Shown piece by piece: positions 7,843 through 27,443 of a DNA stretch of 64,000 bases. The DNA is from Opitutales bacterium (lineage in GTDB: Bacteria; Verrucomicrobiota; Verrucomicrobiia; Opitutales; JABSRG01), in assembly GCA_028280845.1 (NCBI GenBank), contig JANQKZ010000006.1, positions 135,512-199,511 on the forward strand, read 5' to 3'. The notes under the pieces were generated by a model. That model was given only the letters and a program-made list of their open reading frames with translations. It was not told the origin of the DNA and searched no databases. A program made the translations under genes and the position numbers. Positions within the stretch are counted from its first letter, which is position 1. The number at the start of each line of letters is the position of its first letter.

Positions 7843-7866
7843 AGTACTTGAATCAAATACGCACCG

Positions 7867-9183: not shown

Positions 9184-9194
9184 AGAAAGAGTCT

Positions 9195-9701
9195 ATGCTT
9201 TCTGTTGCAGTCTGCGGTTTGCTCGGCCTTTGGTTCATGGTTTCCTGTTTAAAGCAAACCGCGCTTCCATGGGCATCTCCCCGTTTTCATACATTCAATG
9301 TGTTCGGCTTGTTGCCCAACTGGTCTCTCTTTTCGTCCAATTTTGCCGCTTATAACTACGAGCTCTGTGTACGGTATATTTCAACGGATGGACAATCCGG
9401 CAATTGGATCCCCCTCCCCTCGGGTAGCTCCCGTATTCAAGTTCCGCCGATCTGGAACCCCGAGAGAAGAATAGGAAAAGCCTATTTGGATCTCGCCCTC
9501 AAATTAATTCAACTACGATTACTGAAGAGGGATCACATCCAGTCCAGCCTCCCCTACCTCATCTGCCTGAACATGGCCTCGGCAGCCCCTTCCCCCGCAA
9601 ATGGAAAATCGCTTGAGTTTGGTTTCTTTTTACAGGAAGGCCATAACCGGGGCACCCGGAAGTTGTTCTTTTTATCATCCCGTCACCCGGTGAACCCATG
9701 A
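9195..9701 (+). CDS. Hypothetical protein, possible SdpA-family partner of the downstream HTTM-like protein
   Basis: 168 aa with an N-terminal hydrophobic segment and an LPNWSLFSS...YEL stretch reminiscent of the W-x-F-F/S motif of SdpA-family proteins. The stop overlaps the next start (ATGA). Homology is asserted from memory only. Confidence 0.3.
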   Translation: MLSVAVCGLLGLWFMVSCLKQTALPWASPRFHTFNVFGLLPNWSLFSSNFAAYNYELCVRYISTDGQSGNWIPLPSGSSRIQVPPIWNPERRIGKAYLDLALKLIQLRLLKRDHIQSSLPYLICLNMASAAPSPANGKSLEFGFFLQEGHNRGTRKLFFLSSRHPVNP

Positions 9702-10474
9702 CCGCATTGGATGCATTGGCCTGGGGGCAGACCATTCTGGTCATGGGAATCGTGCTAAGCTCCCTGGAATACCTCGCCCTTAAGCGCTGGTTTGGCGCGG
9801 GAAAGATTTTCAGAGCGATGGCCCCCTCCGGCACGGGAGTGAACAGCTTCTATGCGCTTGCTTTGGTCATGGCGACGCGCGCCCTGGCAGCTGGCCTGCT
9901 CTGCTTTACCCCGATGGATCATATGTTGCGTTCAGGGATCCTCCTCTTCCTGGTTGTAATGACACTCTGGCTTTTCCACCGTATTCCCTTTGGCCAGGAA
10001 GGCGGAGACCAGTTGACCTTGATGGCCCTGGTCCTGCTCTTCATCCAATCCCTGGATTCTCAAAACCTGATGGTCGCTCAGGCCTGCTGTCTGTTTTGGT
10101 CCGGGCAACTGGTACTGGCGTACCTCAAAACGGGCTGGATTAAATTTGCATACTCGGGATGGCGAGATGGGACGTTGTTGCAGTTACTGGGATCCAGCGA
10201 ATTGTACGGGCATCCTTTCTTACACAAAATGGTACAAACCCAAAAAGGGCAAAAAGGGGCGAGAGCTGTCCTTCTTTTTATTGAATGGGGACTTCCGCTG
10301 AGCCTGTTACTTCCCCCAAGTGTATTTTATGTCTTTTTTACACTGGCCCTGCTATTTCATTTCGCCAACGCCGTGTTCCTCGGGTTGGGCGGATTTTTCT
10401 GGGCGATGGCCGCCGTCTTTCCTTCCCTGATTGTGACGCACGGCCTTATTCAGAGGGTCCTCCAGTCGCATTAA
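9698..10474 (+). CDS. Polytopic membrane protein, HTTM/SdpB-like
   Basis: 258 aa with about 6-7 TM helices. The GQEGGDQLTLMALVLLF, QLVLAYLKTGWIKFAYSGWRDGTLL and LALLFHFANAVFLGLG segments fit the HTTM (vitamin-K carboxylase-related, SdpB-type) pattern as I recall it. Confidence 0.4.
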   Translation: MTALDALAWGQTILVMGIVLSSLEYLALKRWFGAGKIFRAMAPSGTGVNSFYALALVMATRALAAGLLCFTPMDHMLRSGILLFLVVMTLWLFHRIPFGQEGGDQLTLMALVLLFIQSLDSQNLMVAQACCLFWSGQLVLAYLKTGWIKFAYSGWRDGTLLQLLGSSELYGHPFLHKMVQTQKGQKGARAVLLFIEWGLPLSLLLPPSVFYVFFTLALLFHFANAVFLGLGGFFWAMAAVFPSLIVTHGLIQRVLQSH

Positions 10475-10478
10475 TCCG

Positions 10479-11396
10479 ATGAAGGAATACTCCGTCAACG
10501 CTGGCCCAAGGGTCCATATCCAGGAATTAGATTCCGGGACCCATGCCGCGTTTAGCCGAATGACGTTTCCCCGGTATCGTTCAAAGGTGACGGAAGTCTG
10601 TCCCACTCATCATCTTCGACTCGCCGCTTTTTCCCGGGATAAACCGATCGGGCTCTTGTTAGGTGAAATAAAAGCCCTATCCCGGGAAATGGAAATTCTG
10701 TCTCTCTTCGTCATTCAGGGAGAGCGGAGGAAGGGAGTCGCCACCGCTTTACTGCAAGAGGCAGAGCGGATTTTAGTCAGGAATAAGGTCAAATCCATGG
10801 CCCTGGTGTTTATGGAAAAGACACAAACCCCACATCCCTTACGCCCCCTCCTGGCCAGTCAGCAATGGAACTCACCGGAAATCCGTATGGTGAGCTGCTT
10901 TTCACCTAAAACCCTCCTGTCCAGGGGCCCCTGGGTGAAGCCATACGTCAACCTGAGTCCGAGGCTAGTGTTGAAAGCCTGGGTAGATTTAACCGCCGAG
11001 GAGCGCAAGTCGGTTTACCGCGAGGATGCTCCAGAAGTGCTCAAGCCAAACCCGAAAGATCGGACCCTGGAACCCGTTTCCAGTATCGTCGTCTTTGAGG
11101 GAAAGCTTCCGATTGGGTGGATGATCAATCACGAGATTGACTCCGACCGAATCCGCTTCTCCCATCTATGGGTAAGATCTGGTATCTCCCCACGACAGTT
11201 GAACGGGATCGCCCTGGTCGGACATTCGATTCATCGTTGGGCGGAATCCCCCGCCTGCCAGGCATTAGTTTTTGCCTCCATGAACTTTCAAGCCCACAAC
11301 CGACCTATGTGGAATTTTTTGACCCGGCACTTAAAACCATATCTAGATGATATTCGCTTCTCCTTTGGGGCTCGCAAAGAACTAACCGAACGATGA
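10479..11396 (+). CDS. GNAT-family acetyltransferase, two-lobed (paralog of 16501..17409)
   Basis: Acetyl-CoA-binding-type segment ILSLFVIQGERRKGVATALLQEAERIL, plus a second C-terminal lobe. The stop overlaps the lanM start (ATGA). Confidence 0.7.
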   Translation: MKEYSVNAGPRVHIQELDSGTHAAFSRMTFPRYRSKVTEVCPTHHLRLAAFSRDKPIGLLLGEIKALSREMEILSLFVIQGERRKGVATALLQEAERILVRNKVKSMALVFMEKTQTPHPLRPLLASQQWNSPEIRMVSCFSPKTLLSRGPWVKPYVNLSPRLVLKAWVDLTAEERKSVYREDAPEVLKPNPKDRTLEPVSSIVVFEGKLPIGWMINHEIDSDRIRFSHLWVRSGISPRQLNGIALVGHSIHRWAESPACQALVFASMNFQAHNRPMWNFLTRHLKPYLDDIRFSFGARKELTER

Positions 11397-14300: not shown

Positions 14301-14650
14301 CGCCCTTGCCGGGCTTGGTCGAACAGGATATCCTCCGTGCCTTGGACTGCACGAAATCGCAACCCCTTACTCCCCTGGATCATTTATGTTGCGGGAATCT
14401 TGGCCGAGCCCAGGCCCTTCAAGTGGGGGGACTCCGCACCGGGGACACAAGCCTGGTCCTATCGGCCCAGAAATTGACCCAACAAGTCTACTCCCGGGCC
14501 AGAAACCAAGGGGGTTACGGTCTGGGGCTCGCGCCCGGGCTGGACATTTTTTCCTTTCACCAGGGCCTCGCCGGGATCGGCTATCATTTCCTCTGGATGA
14601 ACCACCTGAACACCTTACCTTGTATCCTCGCATGGGAAACAACACCGTAA
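11393..14650 (+). CDS. lanM: Class II lanthipeptide synthetase (LanM), ProcM-like CCG type
   Basis: 1085 aa. The N-terminal dehydratase region carries the kinase-like loop DLHNENLIAHGAHPVIVDLETI. The C-terminal LanC-like cyclase has GFSHGAAGI, WCHGAPGIGL and DHLCCGNLG. Confidence 0.93.
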   Translation: MKIESADLQQIASRGLFLHERIALNEAFSSASEAENPSSVERRVQAWKKAGAAGHEDAFHRLLQNDELDDPDYTLLFEESLRLKPEAFPDWVNRGEALLESYSKTAELTFDELEASLPFLNSDTPVAFEHLLGPLVCFFARQVEAKCPKLLNWVSHSAWNEYQHTFLVTLAMIGSETLGQEFSIFRAVRKTMQGKSPGRQPGSREIYAAFVDHQRRGKLVKTLTRYPLLLRYWISTGYQFVRNAVTFFHHLETDFADIRDELNQGKSPGKVSKLTPGISDRHDGGKTSVRVEFEDGLRTIYKAKSLDTEVGYHRLLDWLNQQGLSTPLNGYHVIDKQGHGWVEFVDVQACRNKEEVKTYFTRGGMLLALFYAIEGSDLHNENLIAHGAHPVIVDLETILQSRPRSLEERGPGQALIQANQFFYWDSVFRTALLPRWEIGPEGQSYDISGLGGVQEHTTSFVQKQWKQINSDDMQLTRQTLSTSPNQNVVRLNGTIQLPSDHREELLQGFREMYALLLEKREELLAPGGPLHRLSRCPVRFIQRNTRIYVTLLRKLALPKNLTFGPDASIVVESLARPFLSLDAPHPYWPLVKVERENCFHLDIPRFMANPDSADLEISAEKTLPAFFEEPAWEQVQKRFRTLSEADCDLQQAFIRSSFASTPSQSLEPPPTDINPTAWENVDPQAWEDEALELAEKACHAAIRSSGNEVSWLTLSYFAEAQRWQVQPMAARLYDGLCGPLVFLAAAERVSGGSPEFRATLEGTVRSISSFLQDAYAARYLFEAGTGAGLGASSLIYALVVAGALLEDRDTLNLAEKCAFWVGEDQCEADQRNDLLGGNAGAVSAFLALHSVRSSGTWMDRALACGDLLLGQRVKTDSGYHTWLTLENKPLLGFSHGAAGIIMALSQLGEQSGESRYIEAAEEALAYENSFFDEEKGNWPDLRYRQTKDGYHFTNRWCHGAPGIGLGRLYTPLPGLVEQDILRALDCTKSQPLTPLDHLCCGNLGRAQALQVGGLRTGDTSLVLSAQKLTQQVYSRARNQGGYGLGLAPGLDIFSFHQGLAGIGYHFLWMNHLNTLPCILAWETTP

Positions 14651-15561
14651 CACTCAGTGTCCTGGAATTTGGCTACTTGGGCCCCAATCAGGACGCCCGC
14701 CTGCGCCTACAGGCTGTCGTGGACCACGGCCCCGTCTTCGAAGCCATGGGGTTTCATCGATATTGGTTGGCCGAACATCATGAGGCACACTTCGCCTTCG
14801 CCGTGCCGGAACTTATGATCCCCGCAATTGCGGCGAAAACTTCGACCATTCGTTTGGGAACGGCCGGTGTGCTCATGCAATTCCACAGCCCCCTGAGAAT
14901 CGCAGAATCCTTCCGCATGCTCGAAGCCCTCTACCCCGATCGCATCGACTGTGGTGTCGCCTCCGGGGTTACCGCCCATGTCGAGGTCCGCAAAGATCTT
15001 TATCCCGACTTTGACTTGGATCGCGCTATCCGGGATCGCCAATACACCCAGCACGTGGAGCGCCTCATCACCCTGCTGCGGGATGAAGCCCACTACGACC
15101 ATCGCCATTACCGCAGTGTGAGCCCGGCTCGGCAAGCCAGCCCGGCCATCACGCTCCTGGGCGCTGCCCGAGGCAAGGGAAACCAAATCCTGGCCTCCCG
15201 GCACGGGACCGCCTTTTGCTATTCTCTGGCCCATGGTCCCTCCGAACAAGGCCCGGCCATTTGCCAAAGATATCGAGAAAACTTTCAGGCCAGTAAGACC
15301 CTTCAGGAACCCAAGCTACTCATCGCCGCCACCGTCATATGCGCCGAAACCAACGCAAAAGCAGTCGAGTATTTGAATTACTTAAAAGCGATGAACCAGA
15401 CCGTGGGCACAGTGATTATGGGTAACCCGCGATTGTGCCGGGATAAAATACTCCAGCTTTGTGAACAGTTTCAATGCCATGACTTCGTCATCATCCCCAT
15501 GTATCCCAAGGCCCATCAGGTCACAGAAGGCATGGAACGCCTTATGGAGACATTCTCGTAA
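14632..15561 (+). CDS. LLM-class (luciferase-like, group 1) flavin-dependent oxidoreductase
   Basis: LSVLEFGYLGPN...GFHRYWLAEHHEAHFAFAVPELMIPAIAAKTSTIRLGTAGVLMQFHSPLRIAESFRMLEALYPDRIDCGVASG matches the luciferase-family group 1 pattern. The homology starts at the ATG at 14632, which overlaps the lanM end by 19 nt. The ORF-track start at 14203 is an out-of-frame run-in through lanM. Confidence 0.85.
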   Translation: MGNNTVTLSVLEFGYLGPNQDARLRLQAVVDHGPVFEAMGFHRYWLAEHHEAHFAFAVPELMIPAIAAKTSTIRLGTAGVLMQFHSPLRIAESFRMLEALYPDRIDCGVASGVTAHVEVRKDLYPDFDLDRAIRDRQYTQHVERLITLLRDEAHYDHRHYRSVSPARQASPAITLLGAARGKGNQILASRHGTAFCYSLAHGPSEQGPAICQRYRENFQASKTLQEPKLLIAATVICAETNAKAVEYLNYLKAMNQTVGTVIMGNPRLCRDKILQLCEQFQCHDFVIIPMYPKAHQVTEGMERLMETFS

Positions 15562-15618: not shown

Positions 15619-15999
15619 CTAGACGCAACCGCCAACCGCGCCCACACCGGGATAACCAATGCTAACGGTTGAGGTCACCGCACAAGAGGCTGCACAGGAT
15701 GCTGCGCACCGCGCGCCCCCTGCTACCTGTTCCAACTCACTATCGGAGAGTTCTTCGTCCTCATCGACAGGCTCATCGAGAATGATATTCACGAGCGCAC
15801 CCTTACCATCGTGAAACTTGACCGAGATCCCATCCGGAACGGGTTTGGCCGATTGCTCCATGATGGCCGCCTGGGGATCGCTCAGGGCTTTTTCTCGAAA
15901 AGCAGCATCGGTACGGGCACGTTCAATGGTGGAACGAAGCAGGTCCTCAATATCACGCGGTTCCCAATTCGGACTAGCCGCACTATCGAAGTCTGACAT
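15619..15999 (-). CDS. NHLP-leader lanthipeptide precursor A1 (core 15622..15714)
   Basis: 126 aa. The leader ...AFREKALSDPQAAIMEQSAKPVPDGISVKFHDGKGALVNIILDEPVDEDEELSDSELEQVAGG fits the nitrile-hydratase-like leader (NHLP) pattern and ends in a double glycine. The core is ARCAASCAASCAVTSTVSIGYPGVGAVGGCV. Confidence 0.88.
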   Translation of the reverse strand: MSDFDSAASPNWEPRDIEDLLRSTIERARTDAAFREKALSDPQAAIMEQSAKPVPDGISVKFHDGKGALVNIILDEPVDEDEELSDSELEQVAGGARCAASCAASCAVTSTVSIGYPGVGAVGGCV

Positions 16000-16001
16000 G
16001 A

Positions 16002-16334
16002 CTAGAATCCTTGACTGACGACACAGCTAGCGGCGCAACTGCCTCCGCAACGATTTCCGTCTCCGACACCCCCTGCTACTTGCTCCAATTCGCTGTCACT
16101 CAATTCTTCGGCGACAGGATCAGGCAGGACAAAGGTAAAGGTAGCTCCAGCGTTATCCACGAAGCGGATAGAAACACCTTCCGGAATGGGTTTATCCGTG
16201 AATTTTGCGATGGCCGCATGGGGATCTGACATTGCGAGTTCGCGTAATTCGGGATCAGTGCTTGATTTTGCTAGAAGTTCGGAAGCAACTTCGTTAATTG
16301 AATCTTCGGTCCAGGGTCCGGGATCGATGGCCAT
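16002..16334 (-). CDS. NHLP-leader lanthipeptide precursor A2 (core 16005..16067)
   Basis: 110 aa. The leader is ...ELRELAMSDPHAAIAKFTDKPIPEGVSIRFVDNAGATFTFVLPDPVAEELSDSELEQVAGG and the core is VGDGNRCGGSCAASCVVSQGF. Its stop lies 2 nt upstream of the A1 start, and an AAGGA Shine-Dalgarno for A1 sits inside its last codons. Confidence 0.88.
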   Translation of the reverse strand: MAIDPGPWTEDSINEVASELLAKSSTDPELRELAMSDPHAAIAKFTDKPIPEGVSIRFVDNAGATFTFVLPDPVAEELSDSELEQVAGGVGDGNRCGGSCAASCVVSQGF

Positions 16335-16500
16335 AAGGTATCCTTACTAGAGGTTAATTCGTGGTGTTTAAGAATTGAGATAGCGACAGAATGGATTTTC
16401 TGTAGCTGGAAGTGTTAGGGCATCTTTGCCTGTGTAAAGGTTGAATTTAACCTACTATGCCCTATTAGCCCCCCTGTTGAGTTTTCATGGTTTATTTACA

Positions 16501-17409
16501 ATGCCTAATATAGGGTCTATCCCCGATCCCCGCCTGGTGGACTTGGAAGACCTGCGGGCCCTTCGATATCGCTCCTTCACCTTTCCGACTCATGCCAATC
16601 TGCTCTCCCAGACAGAGAGACCGGAAGTCGTGGCTATCGGGTTGGAACGGGCAGGACGACCCATCGGCCTGGGACTCGGGATGCGGGGAAACAGTGAAGC
16701 CTATTCCGGTGACATCCTGTCGCTGGCCGTGGCTGCCGAATATCGAACCCAAGGCTACGGCAGTGCGCTCCTCAATCGTTTGGAGTGCCGCCTTCAGCAA
16801 AAGGGGGCCTGCTTTGCCAGCCTACAGTACATGTCCCACCAGAAGAGCACCCCTTATCTGGAACGCATGCTTCGTTCCGCTGGTTGGGAAGAGCCAGTCC
16901 ATCGGCAATTGTTCTGTGCCTCCACCTACACAAGGATTCTAAAGGCCCCCTGGATGCGCTTCAGAACCCTGCCGGACGGCTTCGAGACCTTTTCCTGGCC
17001 TGCAGGACTTCAAGATTCGGAATGGAAACGACTGACTGGCGAAGGTGGGCGAGCGTCCTGGTTCCCGGAATTGTTAAATCCCTTGCATAGCGTGGAAGAC
17101 ATCGATGGAGAAAATAGCCTGGGATTGCGGTTTCGGGGGGACCTGGTCGGATGGCTGATCGCTTTCCGGATTGCCCCGACGACCGTCCGCTATCAAAAAC
17201 TCTTTATCAAGGATGAATTCCAGAAACAGGGATTGGCGATTCGACTCCTGGCGATGGGGATTTATCCCCTGCCCTCCACTGGGGTCGACTCCGCGGTCTG
17301 GGATGTGATCCCCACTAGCAAGAATATGCTCAATTTTGTTGAGCGGGGTTTGCGACCCTACTGCACAGAATACAAATGGTCGATGGGAGCCATCAAACGG
17401 TTTTCCTGA
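16501..17409 (+). CDS. GNAT-family acetyltransferase, two-lobed (paralog of 10479..11396)
   Basis: ILSLAVAAEYRTQGYGSALLNRLECRL GNAT core. The segment STPYLERMLRSAGWEEP...APWMRFR aligns by eye with TPHPLRPLLASQQWNSP...GPWVKPY of the other GNAT. I prefer the ATG at 16501; the ORF track opens at a TTG at 16441. Confidence 0.7.
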   Translation: MPNIGSIPDPRLVDLEDLRALRYRSFTFPTHANLLSQTERPEVVAIGLERAGRPIGLGLGMRGNSEAYSGDILSLAVAAEYRTQGYGSALLNRLECRLQQKGACFASLQYMSHQKSTPYLERMLRSAGWEEPVHRQLFCASTYTRILKAPWMRFRTLPDGFETFSWPAGLQDSEWKRLTGEGGRASWFPELLNPLHSVEDIDGENSLGLRFRGDLVGWLIAFRIAPTTVRYQKLFIKDEFQKQGLAIRLLAMGIYPLPSTGVDSAVWDVIPTSKNMLNFVERGLRPYCTEYKWSMGAIKRFS

Positions 17410-17425
17410 TTTCCCCACATAGTCC

Positions 17426-18355
17426 ATGGATCCGATACCTCTCATAATCCTGGAAGAGCACCACGAGGCATTTTATACCCTGGTCGCAGCCAAAAAGAAG
17501 GGGTGGCTGGGGGATCAGCCGTACGCCCTCCTTCATGTCGATGAACATTCAGACATGTCGCTTCCTCGCTTGAGACATCCCCTTCCCCGGAAGCGTGACC
17601 CGATAGAAACCTGGATTCGATTTACCTACAATGAGCTGGATATCGGGAATTTCATTTGGCCCCTGGTCTATTTAGGTCATTTGGACTCGGTCACCTGGTT
17701 TCGCTTCCAACACAAAAAGGCAGTCACACCCCGGCATCTCGAAATATGCACCACGGATGACCGGGGGCTGGAATTTATGACGGCCGGATCTCTGGATCAG
17801 ACCGCTTATCGAAACCGACCCGACCGACGCTCCCTCCGCTATGAAACCCGTTCACCTGGCGAAAGCTACGCACCCGACGGCCCGTGGATCTTAAGTATCG
17901 ACGAGGATTTTATTGCCGCCAACCCCTTTCCAAAGATAGAGGATCGGGTGATCGAAATCACGGAAGCCAGTTACCATGCCTTTCTCCGGGATCCATACCA
18001 TTTTCTCAGGATTTCACCGGGCTCCAAGCCGAGTGTATTTGTAAAAGATAAGCGATATTTCTTAAATTTTAACGATCTTCCTTCCTCCGGAGTAACCGAT
18101 TCCTTACAAGTACTGGATTTATCGCCTCGTTATGAAACCCTCAACACCCTTTTGAAGGGAATTCGCCGGCCTCCTGAGTTGATTATGCTTTGCCGCTCGT
18201 TAAAAAGTGGTTACCTGCCTATAACGCTTTTCCCCTCCATTGAAGCACGCTTGTTGCGAGACCTCAGCCATTGCTATCCCACCCAACTTATTCGGGTACA
18301 CGAAATCATCCCCGACTCTGTGAAAGTCGAATACGCCTTTTACCCCAATGATTGA
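17426..18355 (+). CDS. UPF0489-like protein (arginase/ureohydrolase-related fold suspected)
   Basis: The N-terminus PLIILEEHHEAFYTL...ALLHVDEHSDMSLP resembles UPF0489 (PF12640). The motifs EEHHE, HVDEHSD and LSIDEDFIAANP resemble the ureohydrolase metal-binding signatures (GGDHS, DAHxD, SxDxDxxDP). Confidence 0.5.
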   Translation: MDPIPLIILEEHHEAFYTLVAAKKKGWLGDQPYALLHVDEHSDMSLPRLRHPLPRKRDPIETWIRFTYNELDIGNFIWPLVYLGHLDSVTWFRFQHKKAVTPRHLEICTTDDRGLEFMTAGSLDQTAYRNRPDRRSLRYETRSPGESYAPDGPWILSIDEDFIAANPFPKIEDRVIEITEASYHAFLRDPYHFLRISPGSKPSVFVKDKRYFLNFNDLPSSGVTDSLQVLDLSPRYETLNTLLKGIRRPPELIMLCRSLKSGYLPITLFPSIEARLLRDLSHCYPTQLIRVHEIIPDSVKVEYAFYPND

Positions 18356-19310
18356 AGACCACTCCTCGGGAACCACATCCGCCATCGTGCCTCCCTATCC
18401 CCTACCCTTTGAAGCGATAGAGCGGAGGGACGGTCTGTCTCCTGAAGTTTTCCAGGAACGCTATGAAAGCGGAATGCGCCGCCCGGTCGTGGTGACCGAC
18501 GCCATGCAGGAATGGCCTGCCTGGGGAAAGTGGGGGTTTGATTTTTTCGCGAAACAGTATGGAGAAGAACGCGTCGTCGTCACCAACCGCCTGTCCGGGG
18601 CCACGGCCGCCCGGCGGATAAAGATGGGAGATTTCATTACCTATTGTCAGTTTCCTGCCTTCAGTCCCCTTTCCAAAAACGAGACGGATACCCCCTTTTA
18701 CCTGACCTCATTTTCTCCCTTCGTAGACCACCCCGAGCTCTACGGAGACTTTGAGGATCCCTACTTTCTGAGTAACCTCTACCGGTCTCTCGAGGGTCCC
18801 CTGGGCGATTGGTATAAACAAGGCTTCGGCTGGATTTTTATTGGACCTGCGGGAACCCTCTCCCCTCTCCATCTCGATCTTTTTGGAACCCATGCCTGGC
18901 TGGCCCAATTTCATGGGCGGAAGCGCTTCCTTCTGTTCCCGAAAACAGACTTCCCCTACGTCTACGATGGTCGGCCTGATTTTATTAACCCGGATCTCAA
19001 GGCCTTTCCGGACCTCGCCAAGACCCGACCGGTCCTGGCCATCCTCGAGCCTGGGGAAGTCATTTATATCCCAGAGGGATGGGCTCATCATGTGGTCTCA
19101 TTAGATCCCTCCATATCCCTCACATTTAACTTCGTGGACGCCAGTAATGCCGTCGACCATGTGATGGCCATCACCCGCGACTTGCCAAACTGGGTGAACA
19201 AAACCGGAACTGATTCCTTTAAGCAGGCAAACCGGGTATACTGGACCCAGGCGGAGTTCAGTTTTCCTGGCCAGGATGACAACAATGGGAAGGAAGAAGG
19301 TTCTCACTGA
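18348..19310 (+). CDS. JmjC / cupin_8 Fe(II)/2-oxoglutarate-dependent oxygenase
   Basis: WIFIGPAGTLSPLHLDLFGTHAWLAQFHGRKRFLLFP ... IYIPEGWAHHVVSLDPSISLTFNF gives an HxD...H facial triad on a cupin fold, typical of JmjC-only hydroxylases. The start overlaps the upstream stop by 8 nt. Confidence 0.8.
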   Translation: MIEDHSSGTTSAIVPPYPLPFEAIERRDGLSPEVFQERYESGMRRPVVVTDAMQEWPAWGKWGFDFFAKQYGEERVVVTNRLSGATAARRIKMGDFITYCQFPAFSPLSKNETDTPFYLTSFSPFVDHPELYGDFEDPYFLSNLYRSLEGPLGDWYKQGFGWIFIGPAGTLSPLHLDLFGTHAWLAQFHGRKRFLLFPKTDFPYVYDGRPDFINPDLKAFPDLAKTRPVLAILEPGEVIYIPEGWAHHVVSLDPSISLTFNFVDASNAVDHVMAITRDLPNWVNKTGTDSFKQANRVYWTQAEFSFPGQDDNNGKEEGSH

Positions 19311-19311
19311 T

Positions 19312-20955
19312 ATGCATATAGCCAGGATTCAGCCTGCTCGCTTGCTATCCCGAATCTCACCTTGGATCATCCTTCTGGCGTGGTCCTGTACGGGAGTCGG
19401 CCAAGCGCGGAACGACCCGAATCCCCTGCAGATTGATCGTTCGATCCCGGCTCCGGATGATCTTCCCCAGTCCAGATTGGTCGGGCCCACGGCTCCTCCC
19501 GGGCCGTTGACCCTCGAAGATGTGATCCGAATCAGTCTGGAGTCCAATGTGGAGATCCTCGTTCGCCAAGAGGACGTCATCATCGCGGACGCCCAACTGC
19601 AGCAGGTCTCTTCCGTGTTTAACCCGCAGATTGACGCCACCCTGGATAGCAACGAAACCCGGGTGAACTCCGCGCTCTCGACCGCTCCGGAAGATCTTTT
19701 TATTTCCGAGTCGGAAACGTCCACCTACTCTCTCGCCGTCACCAAAACCTTCCGCAGCGGGATTTCTCTCACCCCCAGCCTGGAATACGATTTATCTGCA
19801 TCCAATACGGACGGATTGGTGCCTTCCAACCGCGGCATCTGGCAACTGAACATCACGGTTCCCTTACTGAAAGGATTCGGCAGAATCGCCACAGCTGGAA
19901 AGGAGCTGGCGGCCCAGAAAAATGTAGAAGCCGTGCAGTTTGCCTATGAGCATACACTGTCCGAGCAACTCTCCCTGGTCGTCGCGGCTTACTGGAGTTA
20001 CCTCTCGGCCGCCCGAAATCTCGATATTCTTCAAAGGGCAGAACAGCGGGGCGAACTGCTCCTCCGACAGACCGAAGCCCTGATCGAGGCAAATCAACTG
20101 CCTGCCGCCGAAATCAGTAAATCCCAGGCCGATTTATCCGCCCGCCGCGCTGACCGCTCCAGGGGAGAACTCAGCCTCTTTTCGGCTAGGCGCAACTTGG
20201 GGCTCCTCATGGGACTATCCAAAGAAACGGTCACTACCCTAACGGAACCCTCCACCCCGTTCACGATTGTCCCCCCGGTAGACCCAACTTCCCTCCTTGA
20301 TCAAAGTGAACGCTACGTCGATTTGGCTCTGCAACAACGCCGGGATTTACAAGCTGCGGCTGGACAGACTAAGGCGACTGAGGTGTTGAGAAAGCAAGCC
20401 GAAGCCCTGGATAAAATCCAGGTCGACTTCACCTTGGGGGTTGGCTATTCGGGCTATTCCCCAGGGCGTTCTTTCAGCGCCAAACCGGAATCCTTTTACC
20501 GGCATCTCGAAGGGCCCAGTTATGAGGCGACCTTCAACATCGGTTGGGGCTGGAATCGCAACCTCGAAAAAGGAACCTTGCGCGAACGGCTCTCCCGGGA
20601 AGCCCAGGCCCGCTATGCGGAAGTCCAGCTGGAACGCGAGATCTACTCCGGGGTGATCCGAGCCTTAGAAAACTTGAGGACCGCTTCCCTCACCCTGGAA
20701 GAATCTAACAAGGCTCAACTGCTTTTCCAGAAATCGCTCGAATTAGAGGCTCAAAAGCTCCAGTTGGGCCAAGCTACCATTATTGATGTCATCAACCTGC
20801 AGGAACGCCTGACCCAGGCGGAACTCGAGTTGACTCAGGCTCAGCTTCAATACGTCAATGCCATCGTCGAGCTTCGTTTTCAAACCGGAACCCTCCTGAA
20901 TCTACAGGAGGATATGTTTCAATTAAACCAGGATGCCCTGACGACCCTCCCCTAG
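19312..20955 (+). CDS. TolC-family outer-membrane efflux protein
   Basis: Signal-like N-terminus, LTLEDVIRISLESNVEILVRQEDV... and two long coiled-coil repeat halves typical of OEP/TolC. The ATG at 19312 lies 1 nt after the JmjC stop; the track start at 19276 overlaps it. Confidence 0.85.
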   Translation: MHIARIQPARLLSRISPWIILLAWSCTGVGQARNDPNPLQIDRSIPAPDDLPQSRLVGPTAPPGPLTLEDVIRISLESNVEILVRQEDVIIADAQLQQVSSVFNPQIDATLDSNETRVNSALSTAPEDLFISESETSTYSLAVTKTFRSGISLTPSLEYDLSASNTDGLVPSNRGIWQLNITVPLLKGFGRIATAGKELAAQKNVEAVQFAYEHTLSEQLSLVVAAYWSYLSAARNLDILQRAEQRGELLLRQTEALIEANQLPAAEISKSQADLSARRADRSRGELSLFSARRNLGLLMGLSKETVTTLTEPSTPFTIVPPVDPTSLLDQSERYVDLALQQRRDLQAAAGQTKATEVLRKQAEALDKIQVDFTLGVGYSGYSPGRSFSAKPESFYRHLEGPSYEATFNIGWGWNRNLEKGTLRERLSREAQARYAEVQLEREIYSGVIRALENLRTASLTLEESNKAQLLFQKSLELEAQKLQLGQATIIDVINLQERLTQAELELTQAQLQYVNAIVELRFQTGTLLNLQEDMFQLNQDALTTLP

Positions 20956-20992
20956 GTCTGATGAAACACACTATGATGAAAGGTTGGCTGAC

Positions 20993-22249
20993 ATGGATCC
21001 CATGAAGAAAATTTTCAGGCAAAAATCGCTCGATAAAATCTCGTCTCCCGAGCGCCTGGACGAACTCATGCAGGTTACGAGTCCCCGCCTCTGGATAGCC
21101 CTGCTTACCCTGGGGATCCTCCTGGCCTTTACTCTGGTCTGGGGCGTATTCGGGAGAATCCCCCAAAAGGTTCACGGTCGGGGCATCCTGATCAAAACTG
21201 AGGGACTCTACACCGTGACCACTGAAGGGGCCGGACGGGTTGTGGAAATCTCAGTCAAACCCGGAGAATCCATCGAGACGGGACAGCACATAGCCCGGGT
21301 GGAAGACCCGAATATGCAAAAATTAATCAAAGACGGAAAGGCAAATCTAGCCCGCCTGCAGGAAGTCCACAACACACTCGTCGAGTTCAACCACCGTGAA
21401 GTGAAACTCAAACAGGAATCCATTGATAGGCAGAAAGTCGGCCTGGAAAACACTTTGGATTCGCTGAATCGTAAGGCGTCCTACTTGAAGGAACAACTGA
21501 AGACATTTGACAAACTCTTGGAGGAAGGACTCGTCACCACCAAAACGCGACAACAAACCAACCTCGAAATTCTTCAAGTCGAACTGCAGATCGAGGAAAA
21601 CCACAACAAAATCAGTAACCTGGTGTTGGCCCGGGAGGAAGTGGAAAGCCAGTCGACTCAAGAGATTCAACAATCACAAACTCAGTTGGAGACAGAGCGG
21701 CGTCGGTTAGAGGAACAGGAATTAGCTTACGAGAGAGAAGCCGCCGTGGTCTCCCCCTATTCCGGGAATGTCCTGGAAGTACTCGTCGACCAGCACCAGT
21801 TAGTTGGAGTGGGGAATTCCGTCATCAATTTGGAGTTAACCGGACAGGATTTGACTGTGAGCTTCTTCATCCCTGACACGGAAGGGAAGAAGGTTCGCGA
21901 GGGCTCAGTAATCCAGGTATCCCCGACCACCGTAAAAAAAGAACGCTACGGCGTGCTGCTCGGCGAAGTTGTCAGTATTTCGGAGTTTCCGGCGACCCCT
22001 GTCTTCATGATGCATATCCTTCAGAACAAGGAACTCGTTCATGAAATGGCCCAGACTGGTGATCAATTTGCCGGCGTAGCCTCCATCCAGAAAGATAGCA
22101 ACACCCCGAGCGGGTTTCGATGGTCCTCCGCCCAAGGCCCACCCAAGCAATTATACGCCGGGACGATTTGCGAAGTGAGTGTCGTGACCGAAGAGACGCC
22201 CCCCATCTCCCTCGTCATTCCCTTCCTCCGAAAGCTGTTCGGTTTATAA
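20993..22249 (+). CDS. HlyD-type membrane fusion protein, NHLM bacteriocin-system secretion protein type
   Basis: FRQKSLDKISSPERLDELMQVTSPRLWIALLTLGILL N-terminus, a long coiled coil and a C-terminal beta-barrel region, as in TIGR03794-type adaptors. First ATG at 20993; the track opens at a TTG at 20984. Confidence 0.82.
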   Translation: MDPMKKIFRQKSLDKISSPERLDELMQVTSPRLWIALLTLGILLAFTLVWGVFGRIPQKVHGRGILIKTEGLYTVTTEGAGRVVEISVKPGESIETGQHIARVEDPNMQKLIKDGKANLARLQEVHNTLVEFNHREVKLKQESIDRQKVGLENTLDSLNRKASYLKEQLKTFDKLLEEGLVTTKTRQQTNLEILQVELQIEENHNKISNLVLAREEVESQSTQEIQQSQTQLETERRRLEEQELAYEREAAVVSPYSGNVLEVLVDQHQLVGVGNSVINLELTGQDLTVSFFIPDTEGKKVREGSVIQVSPTTVKKERYGVLLGEVVSISEFPATPVFMMHILQNKELVHEMAQTGDQFAGVASIQKDSNTPSGFRWSSAQGPPKQLYAGTICEVSVVTEETPPISLVIPFLRKLFGL

Positions 22250-22253
22250 GCCC

Positions 22254-24464
22254 ATGGCGGATTCAGACACAACACAGCCAGATTTTAAGCCGTCTATGGT
22301 GAAGAAAAAGCGGAGGATCAAGACCCCTTCGGTTCTTCAAATGGAGGCCGTGGAGTGTGGAGCTGCCTCCCTGTCCATGATTCTAGGTCATTACCATTAC
22401 CGGGAATCGCTGGAGCGCCTTCGGGTCGAGTGTGGAGTTACCCGGGACGGCAGCAAAGCCAGCAACTTGCTCAAGGCGGCCCGCCGCTATGGCTTGAACG
22501 CAAAAGGCTACCGGAAAGAGCCGCAGCAGTTGGCAGATATGCCCCTCCCCATGGTGGTATTCTGGAATTTTAATCACTTCCTCGTCCTGGAAGGTTTCGG
22601 TTCCAAGTGGGTTTATTTAAATGATCCGGCCACCGGTCCCCGCAAGGTAACTTATGCCGAGTTTGACGACAGCTTTACAGGAGTCGCGCTGACCTTCGAA
22701 CCGGGTGAAGACTTTAAAGCAGGCGGAGAAAAACCCAGCTTCATCAACTCCCTGAGAAGACGCCTCCGGGGATCCGAGCTAGGACTCGGCTTCCTAGTAT
22801 TAGCCACGCTCTTTCTGGTCATCCCGGGACTGGTTGTTCCAGCCTTCAGCAAAATATTTATCGACCAGATTCTGATTATGGGCAGGCAGGAATGGCTGCG
22901 TCCCCTCCTGCTGGCCATGATCATTGCTCTTGGTATCCAGACGACTTTATTTTATCTGCAAAAACAGTCGCTTCGCCGCCTCGAAGTCAAGTTGGCCATC
23001 AAGATGTCGAGTGAGTTTTTCAGGCGAGTCCTCAGCCTGCCGGTTCAATTCTTCCAGCAGCGCTTTGCCGGGGAGATTGCCAACCGGGTTGCCCTCAATG
23101 ATCGAATTGCCCAATTACTATCCGGAGAGCTGGCCACCAATACCGTCGGTTTAGGCCTACTGGTGTTTTACGGCTCAGTGATGCTGCTCTACGACTGGGT
23201 ACTTGCCCTGGTCGCCATCGGGGTCGCAGCCAGCAATCTCGTTGTCCTGAAATTCATCTCCCGCAAGCGGAGGGACATCAACGCCCGCCTCTTACAGGAT
23301 CAAGGCAAACTGGCGGGCTCTACCATGGCCGGCCTCCAGATTATAGAAAGCCTGAAAGCCAGCGGAACAGAGGGGAATTTCTTTTCTCAATGGGCCGGCT
23401 ACCAGGTCAAATTTCTGAACGGAATGCAGGGTCTTGGCGTAACCAACCAACTGCTCGCGGTTCTGCCTACTACCCTGCAGGCATTCAACACTGCATTGAT
23501 CCTGGGCCTGGGCGGGTATCGAGTCATGGAAGGTGTCCTCAGCATGGGAGACTTGGTGGCCTTTCAGGTCCTGATGGGCAACTTCACCAAACCGGTTAAT
23601 GAGTTTGTCAAGCTGGGCAGCTCACTCCAGGAAGTGGATGGCAATCTCAAGCGCCTGGACGATGTCCTCAAAAACAAACCCGTAGTTGAGTTTATCGAGC
23701 CCGAAAGCAAACCGGATGCCGGGGACATGAAGGTTCCGATCGAAATGACGGGGCTGGTGGACATCCGCAACCTTTCCTTTGGGTATTCTCCGTTGGATCC
23801 TCCCTTTATCGATAACTTTAACCTTACGGTGCGACCGGGAGAACGGGTGGCTCTGGTAGGTCCCTCCGGATGCGGGAAGTCGACCCTCGCGAAAATTGTC
23901 AGCGGCCTCTACGATCCCTGGACGGGTGAAATCCTCTTCGATGGATTTGCCCGGAGCGAGTATCCCCGCCATTTGTTTACCGACTTCTTCGCCGCGGTGG
24001 ACCAGGATATCTTTCTTTTTGACGGCACCATCAGAGACAACCTCACCCTATGGGACAAAACGGTTTCCCAGCAGGATATGATCTTCGCCTGCAAGGACGC
24101 CTGCATTCATGACATCATTTCCGAGCGATCCGGAGCTTATGAAGGTGTCGTGGCAGAAGGAGGGAGAAACTTCAGCGGGGGGCAACGCCAACGCCTGGAA
24201 ATTGCCCGGGCCTTAATCAGGAACCCGCGGGTCCTCATCCTCGACGAAGCGACCAGCGCCCTCGATCCGGCGACCGAACGCCAGATCGATGAGAATCTGC
24301 GGAGGCGTGGATGCTCCTGTATCATTATTGCCCACCGCCTGAGTACCATTCGGGACTGTGATCAGATCCTGGTGCTCCAACGCGGCAAAGTCGTTCAACA
24401 TGGAGATCACAACAGCCTGATGATGGAGCAGGACGGCATCTACGCCAATTTGGTCAACCTCTAA
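22254..24464 (+). CDS. Bacteriocin ABC transporter with N-terminal C39 peptidase (NHLM peptidase/ATP-binding type)
   Basis: The C39 domain has its catalytic Cys in LQMEAVECGAASLSMILGHY and its His in NFNHFLVLEG. It has a 6-TM domain, Walker A GPSGCGKST, signature FSGGQRQRLEIARAL and Walker B VLILDEATSALD. Confidence 0.9.
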   Translation: MADSDTTQPDFKPSMVKKKRRIKTPSVLQMEAVECGAASLSMILGHYHYRESLERLRVECGVTRDGSKASNLLKAARRYGLNAKGYRKEPQQLADMPLPMVVFWNFNHFLVLEGFGSKWVYLNDPATGPRKVTYAEFDDSFTGVALTFEPGEDFKAGGEKPSFINSLRRRLRGSELGLGFLVLATLFLVIPGLVVPAFSKIFIDQILIMGRQEWLRPLLLAMIIALGIQTTLFYLQKQSLRRLEVKLAIKMSSEFFRRVLSLPVQFFQQRFAGEIANRVALNDRIAQLLSGELATNTVGLGLLVFYGSVMLLYDWVLALVAIGVAASNLVVLKFISRKRRDINARLLQDQGKLAGSTMAGLQIIESLKASGTEGNFFSQWAGYQVKFLNGMQGLGVTNQLLAVLPTTLQAFNTALILGLGGYRVMEGVLSMGDLVAFQVLMGNFTKPVNEFVKLGSSLQEVDGNLKRLDDVLKNKPVVEFIEPESKPDAGDMKVPIEMTGLVDIRNLSFGYSPLDPPFIDNFNLTVRPGERVALVGPSGCGKSTLAKIVSGLYDPWTGEILFDGFARSEYPRHLFTDFFAAVDQDIFLFDGTIRDNLTLWDKTVSQQDMIFACKDACIHDIISERSGAYEGVVAEGGRNFSGGQRQRLEIARALIRNPRVLILDEATSALDPATERQIDENLRRRGCSCIIIAHRLSTIRDCDQILVLQRGKVVQHGDHNSLMMEQDGIYANLVNL

Positions 24465-24467
24465 GCC

Positions 24468-27443
24468 ATGCCCACCTCTCGCACCACTGATACCAGAACC
24501 CCCTTTTACCGGGAAGCGGATCCCTTGGTTCGCGCCCTTTTCGAGAGCCGGGGAGAACGGTCCGACTTGCCTGGAAATGCTCCCATACTCCTCGATTCTT
24601 ATGCTGCCTGGCTGGTCGAGAAGGGCCAAGTCGAACTCTTTTCGGTTGAGGTAGAAGAGGGACAGCCGGTTGGGGCACGCAGTCACCTCCTCACCTTGCC
24701 CCAGGGCAGGATTTTCCTCGGCATGGGGGAATCGATTAACGAGGGCTTACTAGCGGTCGGTGGAACCAACACCCGAATCATCCGTCTCCCGCGCGAGGTC
24801 ATTCGAGATGCGATCAAAGAAGATAGTACGCGCCCTGTCGTGATTGAGCAGCTGAAACTCTGGGTCTTACAACTGAACCTTAGTATCGCCGAACCGCTAT
24901 CCCGAGACCCCGACCATAGAGTGAAACCGGGAAACCCGCTCCAGGCCCAGGCCGGCCAAACCATGGTGACGGCAAACGACCTACTCTGGCTTCGGATCCA
25001 TACGGGTTCGGTCGCGTTTGATGCAAACCTCGATGTGGCTTGGGCAGACCCGTCGCTCTGGCTTCCCTTAACCCCCAGACGCGTCCTGGTTCCCATCGAA
25101 AACTGTATTTTTGAGGCGGTCACGACCGAGGATCTCGCCAGTCGCGAAGGACAGGTATTGTGGGACAGCCTCCAGGCCTTCTATCACCAGCTCTTTGAGA
25201 TTCGTGCCCGCCTGCGGGAAGGGGACACGGCCAGAGAACTGGAACGCTTAAAACAGCAGGAGGAATACGCCAGGGTCGCTGCCGAAACCGCATACGATCA
25301 CCTGGTCGCCGCCCTGGGGAAAAAAGATAAAGCTATCCTCGCTCGCTACAAGGCCATGTCCGCCAGTCCGGTCTTTCATGCAGCAGGCCTCGTCGCCCAC
25401 CACCAGGGAATCGAGATTAGCTTACCGAAAGGACTCGACGAAGTGGGGACTACCGGCAGTCCAGTGGATATGATTTTGAGAGCGTCCCGCTTGAAGGCGC
25501 GAAAAGTGGCCTTGCGCGGCGAGTGGTGGAAAGCATCTCATGGCCCTCTCCTGGCACGCATGGAGACAGATAACCGGCCCGTGGCCCTCATCCCTCATGG
25601 ACCGGACCGCTACTTACTCCACGATCCCGTCGACGATAGTACCGTGGCCGTGACCGATAAAGTGGCTTACGCCGTGACCCCCTTCGCGACCTCCTTTTAC
25701 AAACCACTTCCCGAGAAGCCCCTGAAATATCGGGACCTCCTTACCTTCGTCTATAAAGACTGCATGTGGGAATCGCGCTGGATCTTTCTCCTCTCTTTCG
25801 CTGGCGGGGTGTTGGGTCTCGTTGCCCCCTGGGCCACGGGGATCATTTTTGATACGATCATTCCTGCGGTCGAATACAGCCAGCTGCTTTACCTGACTCT
25901 CGGGATGTTGTTCGCTGTGGGAGGTGCTGGGGCCTTCAATTTCCTGCGCAATATTCTGGTCCTGCGCACCGAAGGAATCTTCGACGTAAAGCTCCAGCCG
26001 GCCTTGTTCGACCGCCTCCTGCGCCTCCCCGTGGACTTTTACCGAAACTACACCGCCGGGGATCTGGCCGAACGCGCCCGGACCATTAACATGATTCGCG
26101 AGGTGTTTTCAGGCAGTATGGTCAATTCCATCATGAGTGGTCTGCTCGGCTTTCTCGCAATTGGCCTCATGCTCAGTTACAACGTAAAATTGACCCTCGT
26201 TGGAATCGGCCTCGGTTTATTCGCCGCCTGCTTTACCTTTATCACCAGCTACCTTAAACTCCACTACGAACGACGAATTCTGGCCCTGGAGGGCAAAACG
26301 CAAGGTCTCGTGTTACAGCTCTTGACGGGGATATCGAAGCTGCGGAATGCGGGAGCCGAGGTGCATGCCTTTTCCTCCTGGACCAAAACCTTCAGCCGTC
26401 AAAAGCAGCTCGACTACAAGGCCAGGGGGTATGACAACGTGGTCTCCATTTTTGCCGAGACCTACATCCTGGCGTGCAGCATCATCATCTTTTTCATGCT
26501 GTTCGAATTCGCCCAGAATGATCCTTCTCAGATCCTGTCAACCGGGAAGTTCCTCGCTTTCAGCGCCGCCTTTGGCCTGTTCATTGGAGGCGTCCTCGGG
26601 ATTGCCCAGTCCTTCGTCCAAGTCATCAACATCGGGCCCATGCTGGCCCGCATTCAGCCGATCCTGGAAAGCGTACCGGAGTCGAATGCCGACGCCATGG
26701 ATCCACCGGAACTCACCGGACGGATTGAACTGAGCCGGATCCGCTTCCGATACAATCCCCAAGATCCCCTGGTGATCAAAGATGTCAGCCTGACTATCCT
26801 CCCTGGCGAATTTGTGGCCTTCGTCGGTCCTTCAGGATCAGGAAAATCCACCATCATGCGCCTCCTCCTCGGGTTCAATCGTCCCGAAAAAGGAAGCATC
26901 CATTACGACAACTACGACTTGGCCAGCCTTGATGTTTCCGGCGTTCGGCGCCAGATGGGGCCTGTCCTGCAAAACGGCCAGCTCCTTCCGGGCGACATCT
27001 ATTCCAATATCATCGGCGCTCGATCCCTCAGTGAACAGGATGCTTGGCAGGCGGCTAAACTGGCCGGGGCCGATACCGAAATCGCCGCCATGCCGATGGG
27101 AATGCATACCCTGGTGAATCCATCGGCCACGACCTTGTCAGGTGGTCAAATCCAGCGCCTTCTGATTGCCCGAGCCATCGCCTCGAATCCCAAAATTTTC
27201 CTCCTGGATGAAGCCACCAGCGCCTTGGACAATCGCTCCCAAGCTGTTGTGACCGAAAGTCTGGATCGTATGAAGGTCACACGGGTCGTCATCGCCCACC
27301 GCCTGAGCACTATCATGAACGCAGACAAAATTTTCGTCATCGTGAAAGGCGAGCTCGTCGAACAAGGGGATTACCATTCCCTTATGCGTCAAAACGGCGT
27401 CTTCGCCGAATTGGCCCGCCGCCAAATGGTGGACGAGGAATAG
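24468..27443 (+). CDS. Second bacteriocin-export ABC permease/ATPase (NHLM ATP-binding type) with an N-terminal extension of about 400 aa
   Basis: 991 aa. C-terminal ABC exporter with Walker A GPSGSGKST, signature LSGGQIQRLLIARAI and Walker B IFLLDEATSALD. There is no C39 Cys motif. The N-terminal soluble region (…AAWLVEKGQVELFSVEVEEGQPVGARSHLLTLPQGRIF…) looks like a cNMP-binding-type beta-roll. Confidence 0.85.
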   Translation: MPTSRTTDTRTPFYREADPLVRALFESRGERSDLPGNAPILLDSYAAWLVEKGQVELFSVEVEEGQPVGARSHLLTLPQGRIFLGMGESINEGLLAVGGTNTRIIRLPREVIRDAIKEDSTRPVVIEQLKLWVLQLNLSIAEPLSRDPDHRVKPGNPLQAQAGQTMVTANDLLWLRIHTGSVAFDANLDVAWADPSLWLPLTPRRVLVPIENCIFEAVTTEDLASREGQVLWDSLQAFYHQLFEIRARLREGDTARELERLKQQEEYARVAAETAYDHLVAALGKKDKAILARYKAMSASPVFHAAGLVAHHQGIEISLPKGLDEVGTTGSPVDMILRASRLKARKVALRGEWWKASHGPLLARMETDNRPVALIPHGPDRYLLHDPVDDSTVAVTDKVAYAVTPFATSFYKPLPEKPLKYRDLLTFVYKDCMWESRWIFLLSFAGGVLGLVAPWATGIIFDTIIPAVEYSQLLYLTLGMLFAVGGAGAFNFLRNILVLRTEGIFDVKLQPALFDRLLRLPVDFYRNYTAGDLAERARTINMIREVFSGSMVNSIMSGLLGFLAIGLMLSYNVKLTLVGIGLGLFAACFTFITSYLKLHYERRILALEGKTQGLVLQLLTGISKLRNAGAEVHAFSSWTKTFSRQKQLDYKARGYDNVVSIFAETYILACSIIIFFMLFEFAQNDPSQILSTGKFLAFSAAFGLFIGGVLGIAQSFVQVINIGPMLARIQPILESVPESNADAMDPPELTGRIELSRIRFRYNPQDPLVIKDVSLTILPGEFVAFVGPSGSGKSTIMRLLLGFNRPEKGSIHYDNYDLASLDVSGVRRQMGPVLQNGQLLPGDIYSNIIGARSLSEQDAWQAAKLAGADTEIAAMPMGMHTLVNPSATTLSGGQIQRLLIARAIASNPKIFLLDEATSALDNRSQAVVTESLDRMKVTRVVIAHRLSTIMNADKIFVIVKGELVEQGDYHSLMRQNGVFAELARRQMVDEE

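Follow-up and report, generated by a model that had tools for sequence, protein, structure and literature searches.

The window analysed here is the whole 64,000-nucleotide stretch of contig JANQKZ010000006.1 (positions 135,512 to 199,511) from an Opitutales bacterium. Our subject is a pair of overlapping forward-strand genes, for a predicted peptide arginase and a predicted JmjC-only oxygenase, which lie in a gene cluster with a class II lanthipeptide synthetase (LanM) and two NHLP-leader precursors, A1 and A2. Loci from other genomes are designated by L numbers.

The overlapping arginase and JmjC genes

The two open reading frames and their 8-nt overlap, ATGATTGA, claimed in the original prediction made from this DNA, were read directly in the sequence. 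The arginase gene ends in ...CCC AAT GAT TGA, with the stop codon at 18353-18355, and the ATG of the JmjC gene is found at 18348-18350. An independent gene call in an identical public contig (L001) has the same JmjC start. Exact-sequence look-ups retrieved a contig for the JmjC protein and none for the arginase. The motifs quoted in that prediction are also present: EEHHE (residues 10-14), LLHVDEHSDM (35-44) and LSIDEDFIAANP (156-167) in the first protein, and PLHLD and GWAHHV in the second. In relatives, the genes overlap by 4 nt (L005 and L006) or are separated by a gap of 6 nt (L004) or 23 nt (L002). Adjacency and order are thus conserved traits of the pair, and the exact 8-nt overlap is not; since the overlap length varies and some relatives have a gap, exact translational coupling is ruled out as a conserved feature.

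The original prediction assigned the first protein to the arginase-related family UPF0489 and the second to JmjC/cupin_8 proteins with an HxD...H triad, and both assignments hold. The 309-aa protein matched Pfam PF12640 (E 3.2e-12, 47.6 bits, cut-off 27 bits) and the NCBIfam peptide-arginase model NF052474 pept_arginase (E 5e-48, model positions 2-285 of 287). Over residues 4-294, it also matched OspR (PDB 8BRP), a peptide arginase of known crystal structure, with an E value of 3.4e-34. In OspR, manganese is bound by His12, Asp39, His41, Asp43, Asp165 and Asp167, with assistance from Glu11, and the family motifs are EEH(N/H)EAF, DxHxD and LDIDLDYFSC (PMC10028609); as a count along the 8BRP alignment showed, residue numbers in the PDB entry run one ahead of those in the paper. 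Alignment with OspR predicts H12, D39, H41, D43, D159 and D161 as the Mn ligands of the window protein, plus E11, and these residues are carried by the motifs EEHHEAF (E11, H12), HVDEHSD (D39, H41, D43) and SIDEDF (D159, D161). The ligand columns and E11 were invariant in an alignment of 17 homologues, except that D159 was missing in one sequence. The region of the OspR insertion (dimerisation) domain also aligned with the window protein.

The AlphaFold2 (AF2) model of the arginase had a predicted local distance difference test (pLDDT) score of 87.5, with lower values in parts of residues 190-230. In a Foldseek search, 8BRP was the sole significant PDB match (template modelling (TM) score 0.79-0.80, E 1e-24, 309 columns). 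The original prediction had proposed a check of the fold and metal ligands; as the arginase fold and the predicted ligand residues were both found, the objection that the protein might have the wrong fold or lack metal ligands does not apply. Sequence and model together leave very little doubt that the 309-aa protein belongs to the OspR-type peptide arginases, and its predicted binuclear-metal site is complete.

OspR is the landornamide arginase of Kamptonema sp. PCC 6506, and the homology is full-length, with 32% identity in the structural alignment. The two proteins have in common the three motifs, the six Mn ligands and an NHLP/LanM context. They differ in the third motif, which is LSIDEDF in the window protein and LDIDIDYFSC in OspR, the non-ligand first Asp being replaced with Ser. 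Furthermore, each core in the window contains one target Arg, against two in the OspR system, and the partner genes encode a GNAT and a JmjC protein here, but a radical-SAM epimerase in the case of OspR.

The 320-aa protein matched three Pfam models: Cupin_8 (E 3.3e-28, 99.7 bits, cut-off 27.4), JmjC (29.1 bits, cut-off 24) and JmjC_2/PF08007 (28.2 bits, cut-off 22). The closest solved sequences were those of JMJD6 (E 4e-22), JMJD5 and FIH. The iron triad H175-x-D177...H247 and the 2-oxoglutarate (2OG)-binding K192 were invariant in 23 homologues, and also in a set of 12 sequences from five phyla. They aligned with the H-x-D, Lys and His positions of JMJD6, which we take to be residues H187/D189/K204/H273. 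The AF2 model (pLDDT 88.9) gave JMJD5, JMJD6, JMJD7, TYW5 and FIH as the top Foldseek matches, with an E value of 1e-21 and a TM score of 0.83 on the target for JMJD5. The protein is thus predicted, from its sequence and model, to be a JmjC-only Fe(II)/2OG oxygenase with intact catalytic residues. Arginyl residues are hydroxylated at C3 by JMJD5, and lysyl residues at C5 by JMJD6 and at C3 by JMJD7, so the folds nearest to the window protein act on basic side chains of polypeptides. The likeness to these human enzymes includes the double-stranded beta-helix, the HxD...H triad, the 2OG-binding Lys and, presumably, basic polypeptide side chains as substrates. The differences are an identity of only 24-28%, the bacterial origin of the window protein, its encoding in an operon for a peptide that is made on the ribosome and modified after translation (RiPP), and its presumed substrate, an ornithine in a leader-tagged peptide.

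Conservation of the gene pair

Eight contigs with homologues of the JmjC protein (44-100% identity) were inspected, and the relatives named by organism were acidobacterial (Bryobacteraceae, Vicinamibacteria and Acidobacteriota); judged by these relatives, the gene cluster would probably be of acidobacterial origin. In seven of these contigs (L001, L002, L004, L005, L006, L089 and L090), the arginase gene was found directly upstream of the JmjC gene. In the five of these with sufficient upstream sequence (L001, L002, L004, L005 and L006), and in L089, NHLP precursors followed by a GNAT preceded the arginase. Starting from the arginase, a profile search of genome contigs yielded 80 loci, 74 of them with at least 1.2 kb of downstream sequence. 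A JmjC gene directly followed the arginase in 11 of the 74, and these loci also contained a GNAT (11/11), NHLP precursors (10/11) and LanM (10/11). By comparison, a GNAT was present in 8 of the 63 other loci (Fisher p 2e-8), counts that come from loci that are not phylogenetically independent. In all 11 arginase-JmjC loci, the GNAT gene lay directly upstream of the arginase or, in L082, of a tandem arginase pair.

The order precursor-GNAT-arginase-JmjC(-LanM) was found in five phyla, with representatives in Acidobacteriota, Alpha- and Gammaproteobacteria, Elusimicrobiota and Bdellovibrionales. It was observed in L002, L004, L005/L009, L010, L012 (no LanM) and L089, and, with LanM as the last gene, in Acidobacteriota (L006), Caulobacteraceae (L017), Nisaea (L032), Pseudohaliea rubra DSM 19751 (L037), Chromatocurvus (L039), Alteromonadaceae (L042), Elusimicrobiota (L038 and L052) and Bdellovibrionales (L082). 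The adjacent arginase-JmjC pair was found only in RiPP loci; the broad distribution away from such loci that would have spoken against a role in peptide modification was not observed in this co-occurrence analysis. An arginase and a GNAT without JmjC were present in L011, L013, L027, L065 and L028, a locus resembling the published kamptornamide (ksp) cluster. The presence or absence of JmjC parallels the published difference between ksp, which has no hydroxylase, and the phaeornamide (pha) operon. The pha locus itself was absent among the 80 loci of the arginase profile scan, and a tblastn search with the arginase against plasmids gave no match.

Several loci showed variations of this arrangement. 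In L082, a Bdellovibrionales metagenome-assembled genome, two tandem arginase paralogues are located between the GNAT and JmjC genes (9150-10879). In the Vicinamibacteria-type loci L005/L009 (10900-13008) and L090 (1599-4774), a radical SAM protein of 640-700 aa and a DUF7005 protein are inserted directly after JmjC. The acidobacterial arginase and GNAT loci L011, L012 and L013, of which only L012 has a JmjC gene, lack LanM and have short, Cys-free, Asn-rich cores (VNRNNVNL, SNRNNVVL and ARNNNNNIKPL); they may encode linear lipopeptides.

In a rough neighbour-joining tree without support values, the JmjC proteins of the precursor-GNAT-arginase-JmjC loci formed one clade, separated from the eukaryote-like JMJD6 relatives, and a JmjC protein linked to a nonribosomal peptide synthetase (NRPS) nested inside this clade. 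The NRPS-linked gene (L007, 6812-7714; 40% identity) is flanked on one side by an NRPS module (A-PCP-C) and on the other by YcaO, P450 and halogenase genes, a context suggesting that a non-RiPP or hybrid pathway makes use of this hydroxylase clade as well. Another JmjC homologue, with 34% identity, has an unrelated gene context (L008). More distant JmjC-like genes were observed 0.5-9 kb from the arginase in the Bacteroidota loci L045, L054, L061, L063, L064, L066 and L072, and in L015. L054 is the ohk cluster of Ohtaekwangia koreensis (JmjC-like gene at 19019-19852), and L015 is an osp-like Kamptonema locus (7481-8443); the JmjC-like proteins of these two loci, the two placed in the rough tree, fell outside the clade. 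The main text of the FlmR/OhkR paper makes no mention of a hydroxylase. A profile search with 12 JmjC sequences gave no protein from Pseudophaeobacter.

Precursor peptides and the remainder of the gene cluster

Precursors A1 and A2 matched the NHLP leader model TIGR03793 leader_NHLP with E values of 8.4e-13 (48 bits) and 3.7e-12 (45.9 bits), respectively, both just below the cut-off of 50.9. Both leaders end in ...ELEQVAGG, with the GG cleavage motif, and the core starts after GG. Each core contains one Arg, directly before the first Cys, as originally predicted, and no Lys; a GNAT would therefore find no side-chain amine in the core other than that of an ornithine formed from this Arg. In the loci with the arginase-JmjC module, the cores begin after GG with ARC, GRC, SRC, DRC, RC, GDANRC, GGSGNRC, VGDNNRC or VGSNNRC, such that 'RC' near the core start (x0-5-R-C) is almost universal.

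Two kinds of target had been proposed for the enzymes: the conserved Arg, and Asp3 or Asn5 of core A2. The comparison of cores argues for the first, and the single conserved core Arg stands out clearly as the best candidate substrate. Asp3 and Asn5 vary or are absent in homologous cores and are therefore unlikely JmjC targets; as they are not conserved, they were dropped as candidates for a conserved target. The Arg has been lost from the long peptide of L037 and L042 (MFCLASC... and ICLISC...), and the short peptide retains SRC.

The short core (..RCGGSCxxSC.., about 15-21 aa) and the long core (..RCAASCAASCAVTSTVSIG.PGVGAVGGC., about 30 aa) are found together in members of four phyla, in the window and in L002, L004, L006, L010, L017, L037, L038, L042, L052 and L089. 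Short and long peptides share the N-terminal R-C-x-x-S-C-x-x-S-C pattern, and one LanM serves both. The pair is reminiscent of a two-component lanthipeptide, and its occurrence across four phyla would fit a two-component mode of action.

The features of the cluster are listed in Table 1. GNAT-2, the arginase, JmjC, OEP, HlyD, the C39-ABC transporter and the second ABC transporter form a tight operon in this order, divergent from the precursor genes (15619-16334, minus strand), and synteny of the export genes was observed in L002, L004, L006 and L089. GNAT-2 lies 16 nt upstream of the arginase. In a comparison with the ksp-like cluster L028 from a Kamptonema metagenome-assembled genome, in which the cores begin RRR..., it was 35% identical to the GNAT encoded there, across 282 aa (E 5e-59). 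We propose, by analogy, that GNAT-2 is a RiPP-type GNAT acylating the N-delta of (hydroxy)ornithine. The stop codon of GNAT-1 overlaps the LanM start by 4 nt, and the protein is 23% identical to GNAT-2 over its full length; its location next to LanM is conserved in the acidobacterial relatives L002, L004, L005 and L010. An assignment of one GNAT to each precursor type is ruled out, since L006, L017, L037, L038, L042 and L052 have both peptide types and a single GNAT.

Table 1. Positions and supporting matches of the features of the gene cluster, in window coordinates
Feature	Position	Strand	Evidence or remark
S41 peptidase	7867-9183	+	Peptidase_S41 E 1.2e-9
168-aa protein	9195-9701	+	Homologues in relatives
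258-aa membrane protein	9698-10474	+	L004 orthologue with weak HTTM match
GNAT-1, second GNAT paralogue, putatively RiPP-type	10479..11396	+	Acetyltransf_1 E 6e-8
Class II lanthipeptide synthetase LanM, 1085 aa	11393..14650	+	TIGR03897 E 1.9e-225, 750 bits
Luciferase-like MsnO8-family LLM oxidoreductase, after LanM	14632..15561	+	TIGR03558 181.5 bits (cut-off 166.95); Bac_luciferase E 1.5e-28
NHLP-leader precursor A1, core ARCAASCAASCAVTSTVSIGYPGVGAVGGCV, Arg at core position 2	15619..15999	-	TIGR03793
NHLP-leader precursor A2, core VGDGNRCGGSCAASCVVSQGF, Arg at core position 6	16002..16334	-	TIGR03793
GNAT-2, putative selidamide-like N-acyltransferase, about 302-322 aa, start maybe 16501	16441..17409	+	Acetyltransf_1 E 6e-13
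Predicted peptide arginase (PF12640/UPF0489, OspR/KspR/PhaR type), 309 aa	17426..18355	+	Pfam, NCBIfam, 8BRP, AF2
8-nt overlap ATGATTGA	18348..18355	+	JmjC start codon within arginase last codons and stop
Predicted JmjC-only Fe(II)/2-oxoglutarate oxygenase (Cupin_8/JmjC_2), 320 aa	18348..19310	+	Pfam, PDB matches, AF2
OEP (start 19276 or 19285), overlaps JmjC 3' end	19285-20955	+	Pfam OEP
HlyD	20984-22249	+	Pfam HlyD_3
C39-peptidase ABC transporter	22254-24464	+	Peptidase_C39, ABC_membrane and ABC_tran
Second ABC transporter	24468-27443	+	Pfam

The LLM oxidoreductase gene was also called in L001 and is present in L091 (1383-2324). Some LanJ reductases are LLM-type, and this protein might reduce dehydro-amino acids in the same way. 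Homologues of the genes at 7867-10474 are present in L002, L004, L005/L009, L010 and L089, and in Acidobacteriota these genes accompany the cluster. Immediately beyond the second ABC transporter, a convergent pair of genes (27507-30040, minus strand) encodes an ATPgrasp_ST ligase and an inactive-transglutaminase/7TM protein; this pair is probably outside the gene cluster.

A probable phaeornamide-type pathway and its alternatives

The original prediction knew of no lanthipeptide tailoring enzyme in either family, and the novelty that this implies is contradicted by landornamide, in which the arginase OspR acts together with the LanM OspM, and by phaeornamide (PhaR/PhaI/PhaM; PMC8784127). These two precedents indicate that both families are known for such tailoring, and known together. 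Phaeornamide belongs to the selidamides (Hubrich et al., PNAS 2022, PMC8784127), lanthipeptides in which an Orn or Lys at the N-terminal end of the core bears a fatty acyl group. The pha operon of Pseudophaeobacter arcticus encodes the NHLP precursor PhaA, the GNAT PhaN, the PF12640 arginase PhaR, the PF08007 Fe(II)/2OG hydroxylase PhaI, the LanM PhaM and transporters (PMC8784127). Acylation in this pathway needed prior conversion of Arg to Orn, and hydroxylation occurred only on Orn-containing species; core position 2 of the product is occupied by 4(S)-hydroxyornithine, with 3(S)-hydroxydecanoate as its N-acyl group (PMC8784127).

The window and pha have in common a Gly-Gly NHLP precursor with an Arg near the core start, a PF12640 arginase, an Fe(II)/2OG hydroxylase matching PF08007, a GNAT, a LanM and a C39-ABC exporter, and the Arg of A1 is located, like the modified pha residue, at core position 2. 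The order A-N-R-I-M, which the description of the pha operon and the names of its constructs imply, is found complete in many relatives, and the window retains its N-R-I part. This likeness is read at the level of protein family and gene order. There are also differences: the window has two precursor types with 3-4 Cys each, whereas pha has one precursor and one methyllanthionine ring; two GNATs are present; the hydroxylase is best described as Cupin_8/JmjC; and LanM has moved upstream, together with the LLM oxidoreductase, the S41 peptidase and two uncharacterised proteins. The kamptornamide cluster (KspA/KspN/KspR/KspM) resembles the window in its arginase, GNAT and LanM and in its N-terminal core Arg, but it has no hydroxylase, and its cores start with a run of Arg residues (RRR...) rather than with a single 'RC'.

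By analogy with these pathways, we consider it probable that the enzymes of the two genes act midway in a lipolanthipeptide pathway of the phaeornamide (selidamide) type. The upstream GNAT, overlooked in the original prediction, is proposed to turn the two-enzyme system into a lipidation module, Arg to Orn to hydroxy-Orn to N-acyl product. LanM would dehydrate and cyclise precursors A1 and A2, and the binuclear Mn centre of the arginase would then hydrolyse the guanidino group of Arg2 (A1) and Arg6 (A2), yielding ornithine and urea (-42.02 Da). The JmjC oxygenase, the proposed (hydroxy)ornithine-forming hydroxylase, would hydroxylate the same ornithine side chain (+15.99 Da), and the GNAT encoded directly upstream would transfer a fatty acyl group onto the ornithine delta-amine. 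Finally, the C39-ABC/HlyD/OEP system would cleave after Gly-Gly and export the product. The family membership, the intact catalytic residues, the gene order and the conserved core Arg of this scheme are observed; for the choice of Orn rather than Arg as the JmjC substrate, the order of the steps, the regiochemistry and the acylation, we infer from what is published on pha and ksp.

Several observations, in addition to the non-independence of the loci counted above, weigh against this scheme. NF052474 is a narrow 'exception'-type model ('peptide arginase, FlmR/OhkR family'), and the arginase, with 164 bits, fell below its cut-off of 350 bits; on sequence grounds, the protein appears to be a member of the wider PF12640 arginase family, outside the FlmR/OhkR subgroup. 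In the eighth contig with a JmjC homologue (L091), the order is LanM-LLM-JmjC-OEP-HlyD-C39ABC, with no arginase immediately upstream and a truncated contig. The presence of a JmjC gene of the clade in the NRPS locus L007 indicates that this clade is not strictly bound to arginases. Orthology to PhaI would be drawn from the shared PF08007 match and the identical operon position only. Finally, GNAT-1 and GNAT-2 are both candidate Orn acyltransferases.

The two GNATs also bear on the question of whether the ornithine is acylated at all. The arginase and JmjC protein might make a free, unacylated (hydroxy)ornithine, with the GNATs serving in acetylation elsewhere, in immunity or on another amine. 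Landornamide and three of the four kamptornamide ornithines are unacylated (PMC12703449) and, since two GNATs are present, at least one of them would have a role beyond the pha model. However, none of the 11 pairs of arginase and JmjC in the genome scan was without a GNAT, GNAT-2 is homologous over its full length to the GNAT of the ksp-like cluster, and the Orn would be the only side-chain amine acceptor in cores with one Arg and no Lys. We therefore regard a free ornithine as unlikely.

It is also improbable that the JmjC protein hydroxylates another residue (Asp or Asn, as FIH does, or another core or leader position), with the arginase acting independently. FIH-type enzymes act on Asn and Asp, FIH was among the sequence and fold matches, and related JmjC genes without an adjacent arginase were found in L091 and L007. 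However, the A2 residues in question have no counterpart in A1-type cores, in contrast to the near-universal 'RC', Arg or Lys is the substrate of the best fold matches, an adjacent JmjC gene occurs only in loci with an arginase and a GNAT, and pha hydroxylation occurs on Orn only. A reversal of the pha order, in which the JmjC enzyme hydroxylates Arg first, at C3 as JMJD5 does, and the arginase then yields hydroxy-Orn, would fit JMJD5 as the closest structural match and the need of the arginase PbsE for a pre-modified substrate (PMC12703449), but is improbable too, given that hydroxylation was exclusive to Orn-containing species in the sole characterised pathway (PMC8784127) and that the genes run arginase then JmjC.

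The phaeornamide-type reading would thus make the locus, by analogy with published systems, an uncharacterised selidamide-type pathway rather than a source of new lanthipeptide tailoring chemistry. Acidobacterial members are already present in the selidamide GNAT clade (PMC8784127). The window goes beyond the characterised examples in its multi-Cys short and long precursors, second GNAT, LLM oxidoreductase, S41 peptidase and two unannotated proteins. We tentatively suggest, as a possibility that we hold to be doubtful, that this locus and its acidobacterial relatives constitute a distinct selidamide subclass: a two-peptide, multi-ring lipolanthipeptide, in which the short peptide (..RCGGSCAASC..) and the long peptide (..RCAASCAASCAVTSTVSIG.PGVGAVGGC.) would both carry an N-acyl-(hydroxy)ornithine beside the first ring. 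Further, undescribed modifications would then be added by GNAT-1, the LLM oxidoreductase, the S41 peptidase and the HTTM-like membrane protein.

Selidamides draw interest because they are encoded by genes and mimic the lipopeptide antibiotics of nonribosomal origin; to our knowledge, only three selidamide pathways have been characterised. The arginase-hydroxylase-GNAT module appears to be a portable cassette, present in at least five phyla, with a near-universal 'RC' at the core start. The acidobacterial variant, which seems to be richer in having two peptides, more than one ring and additional enzymes, would be open to heterologous expression.

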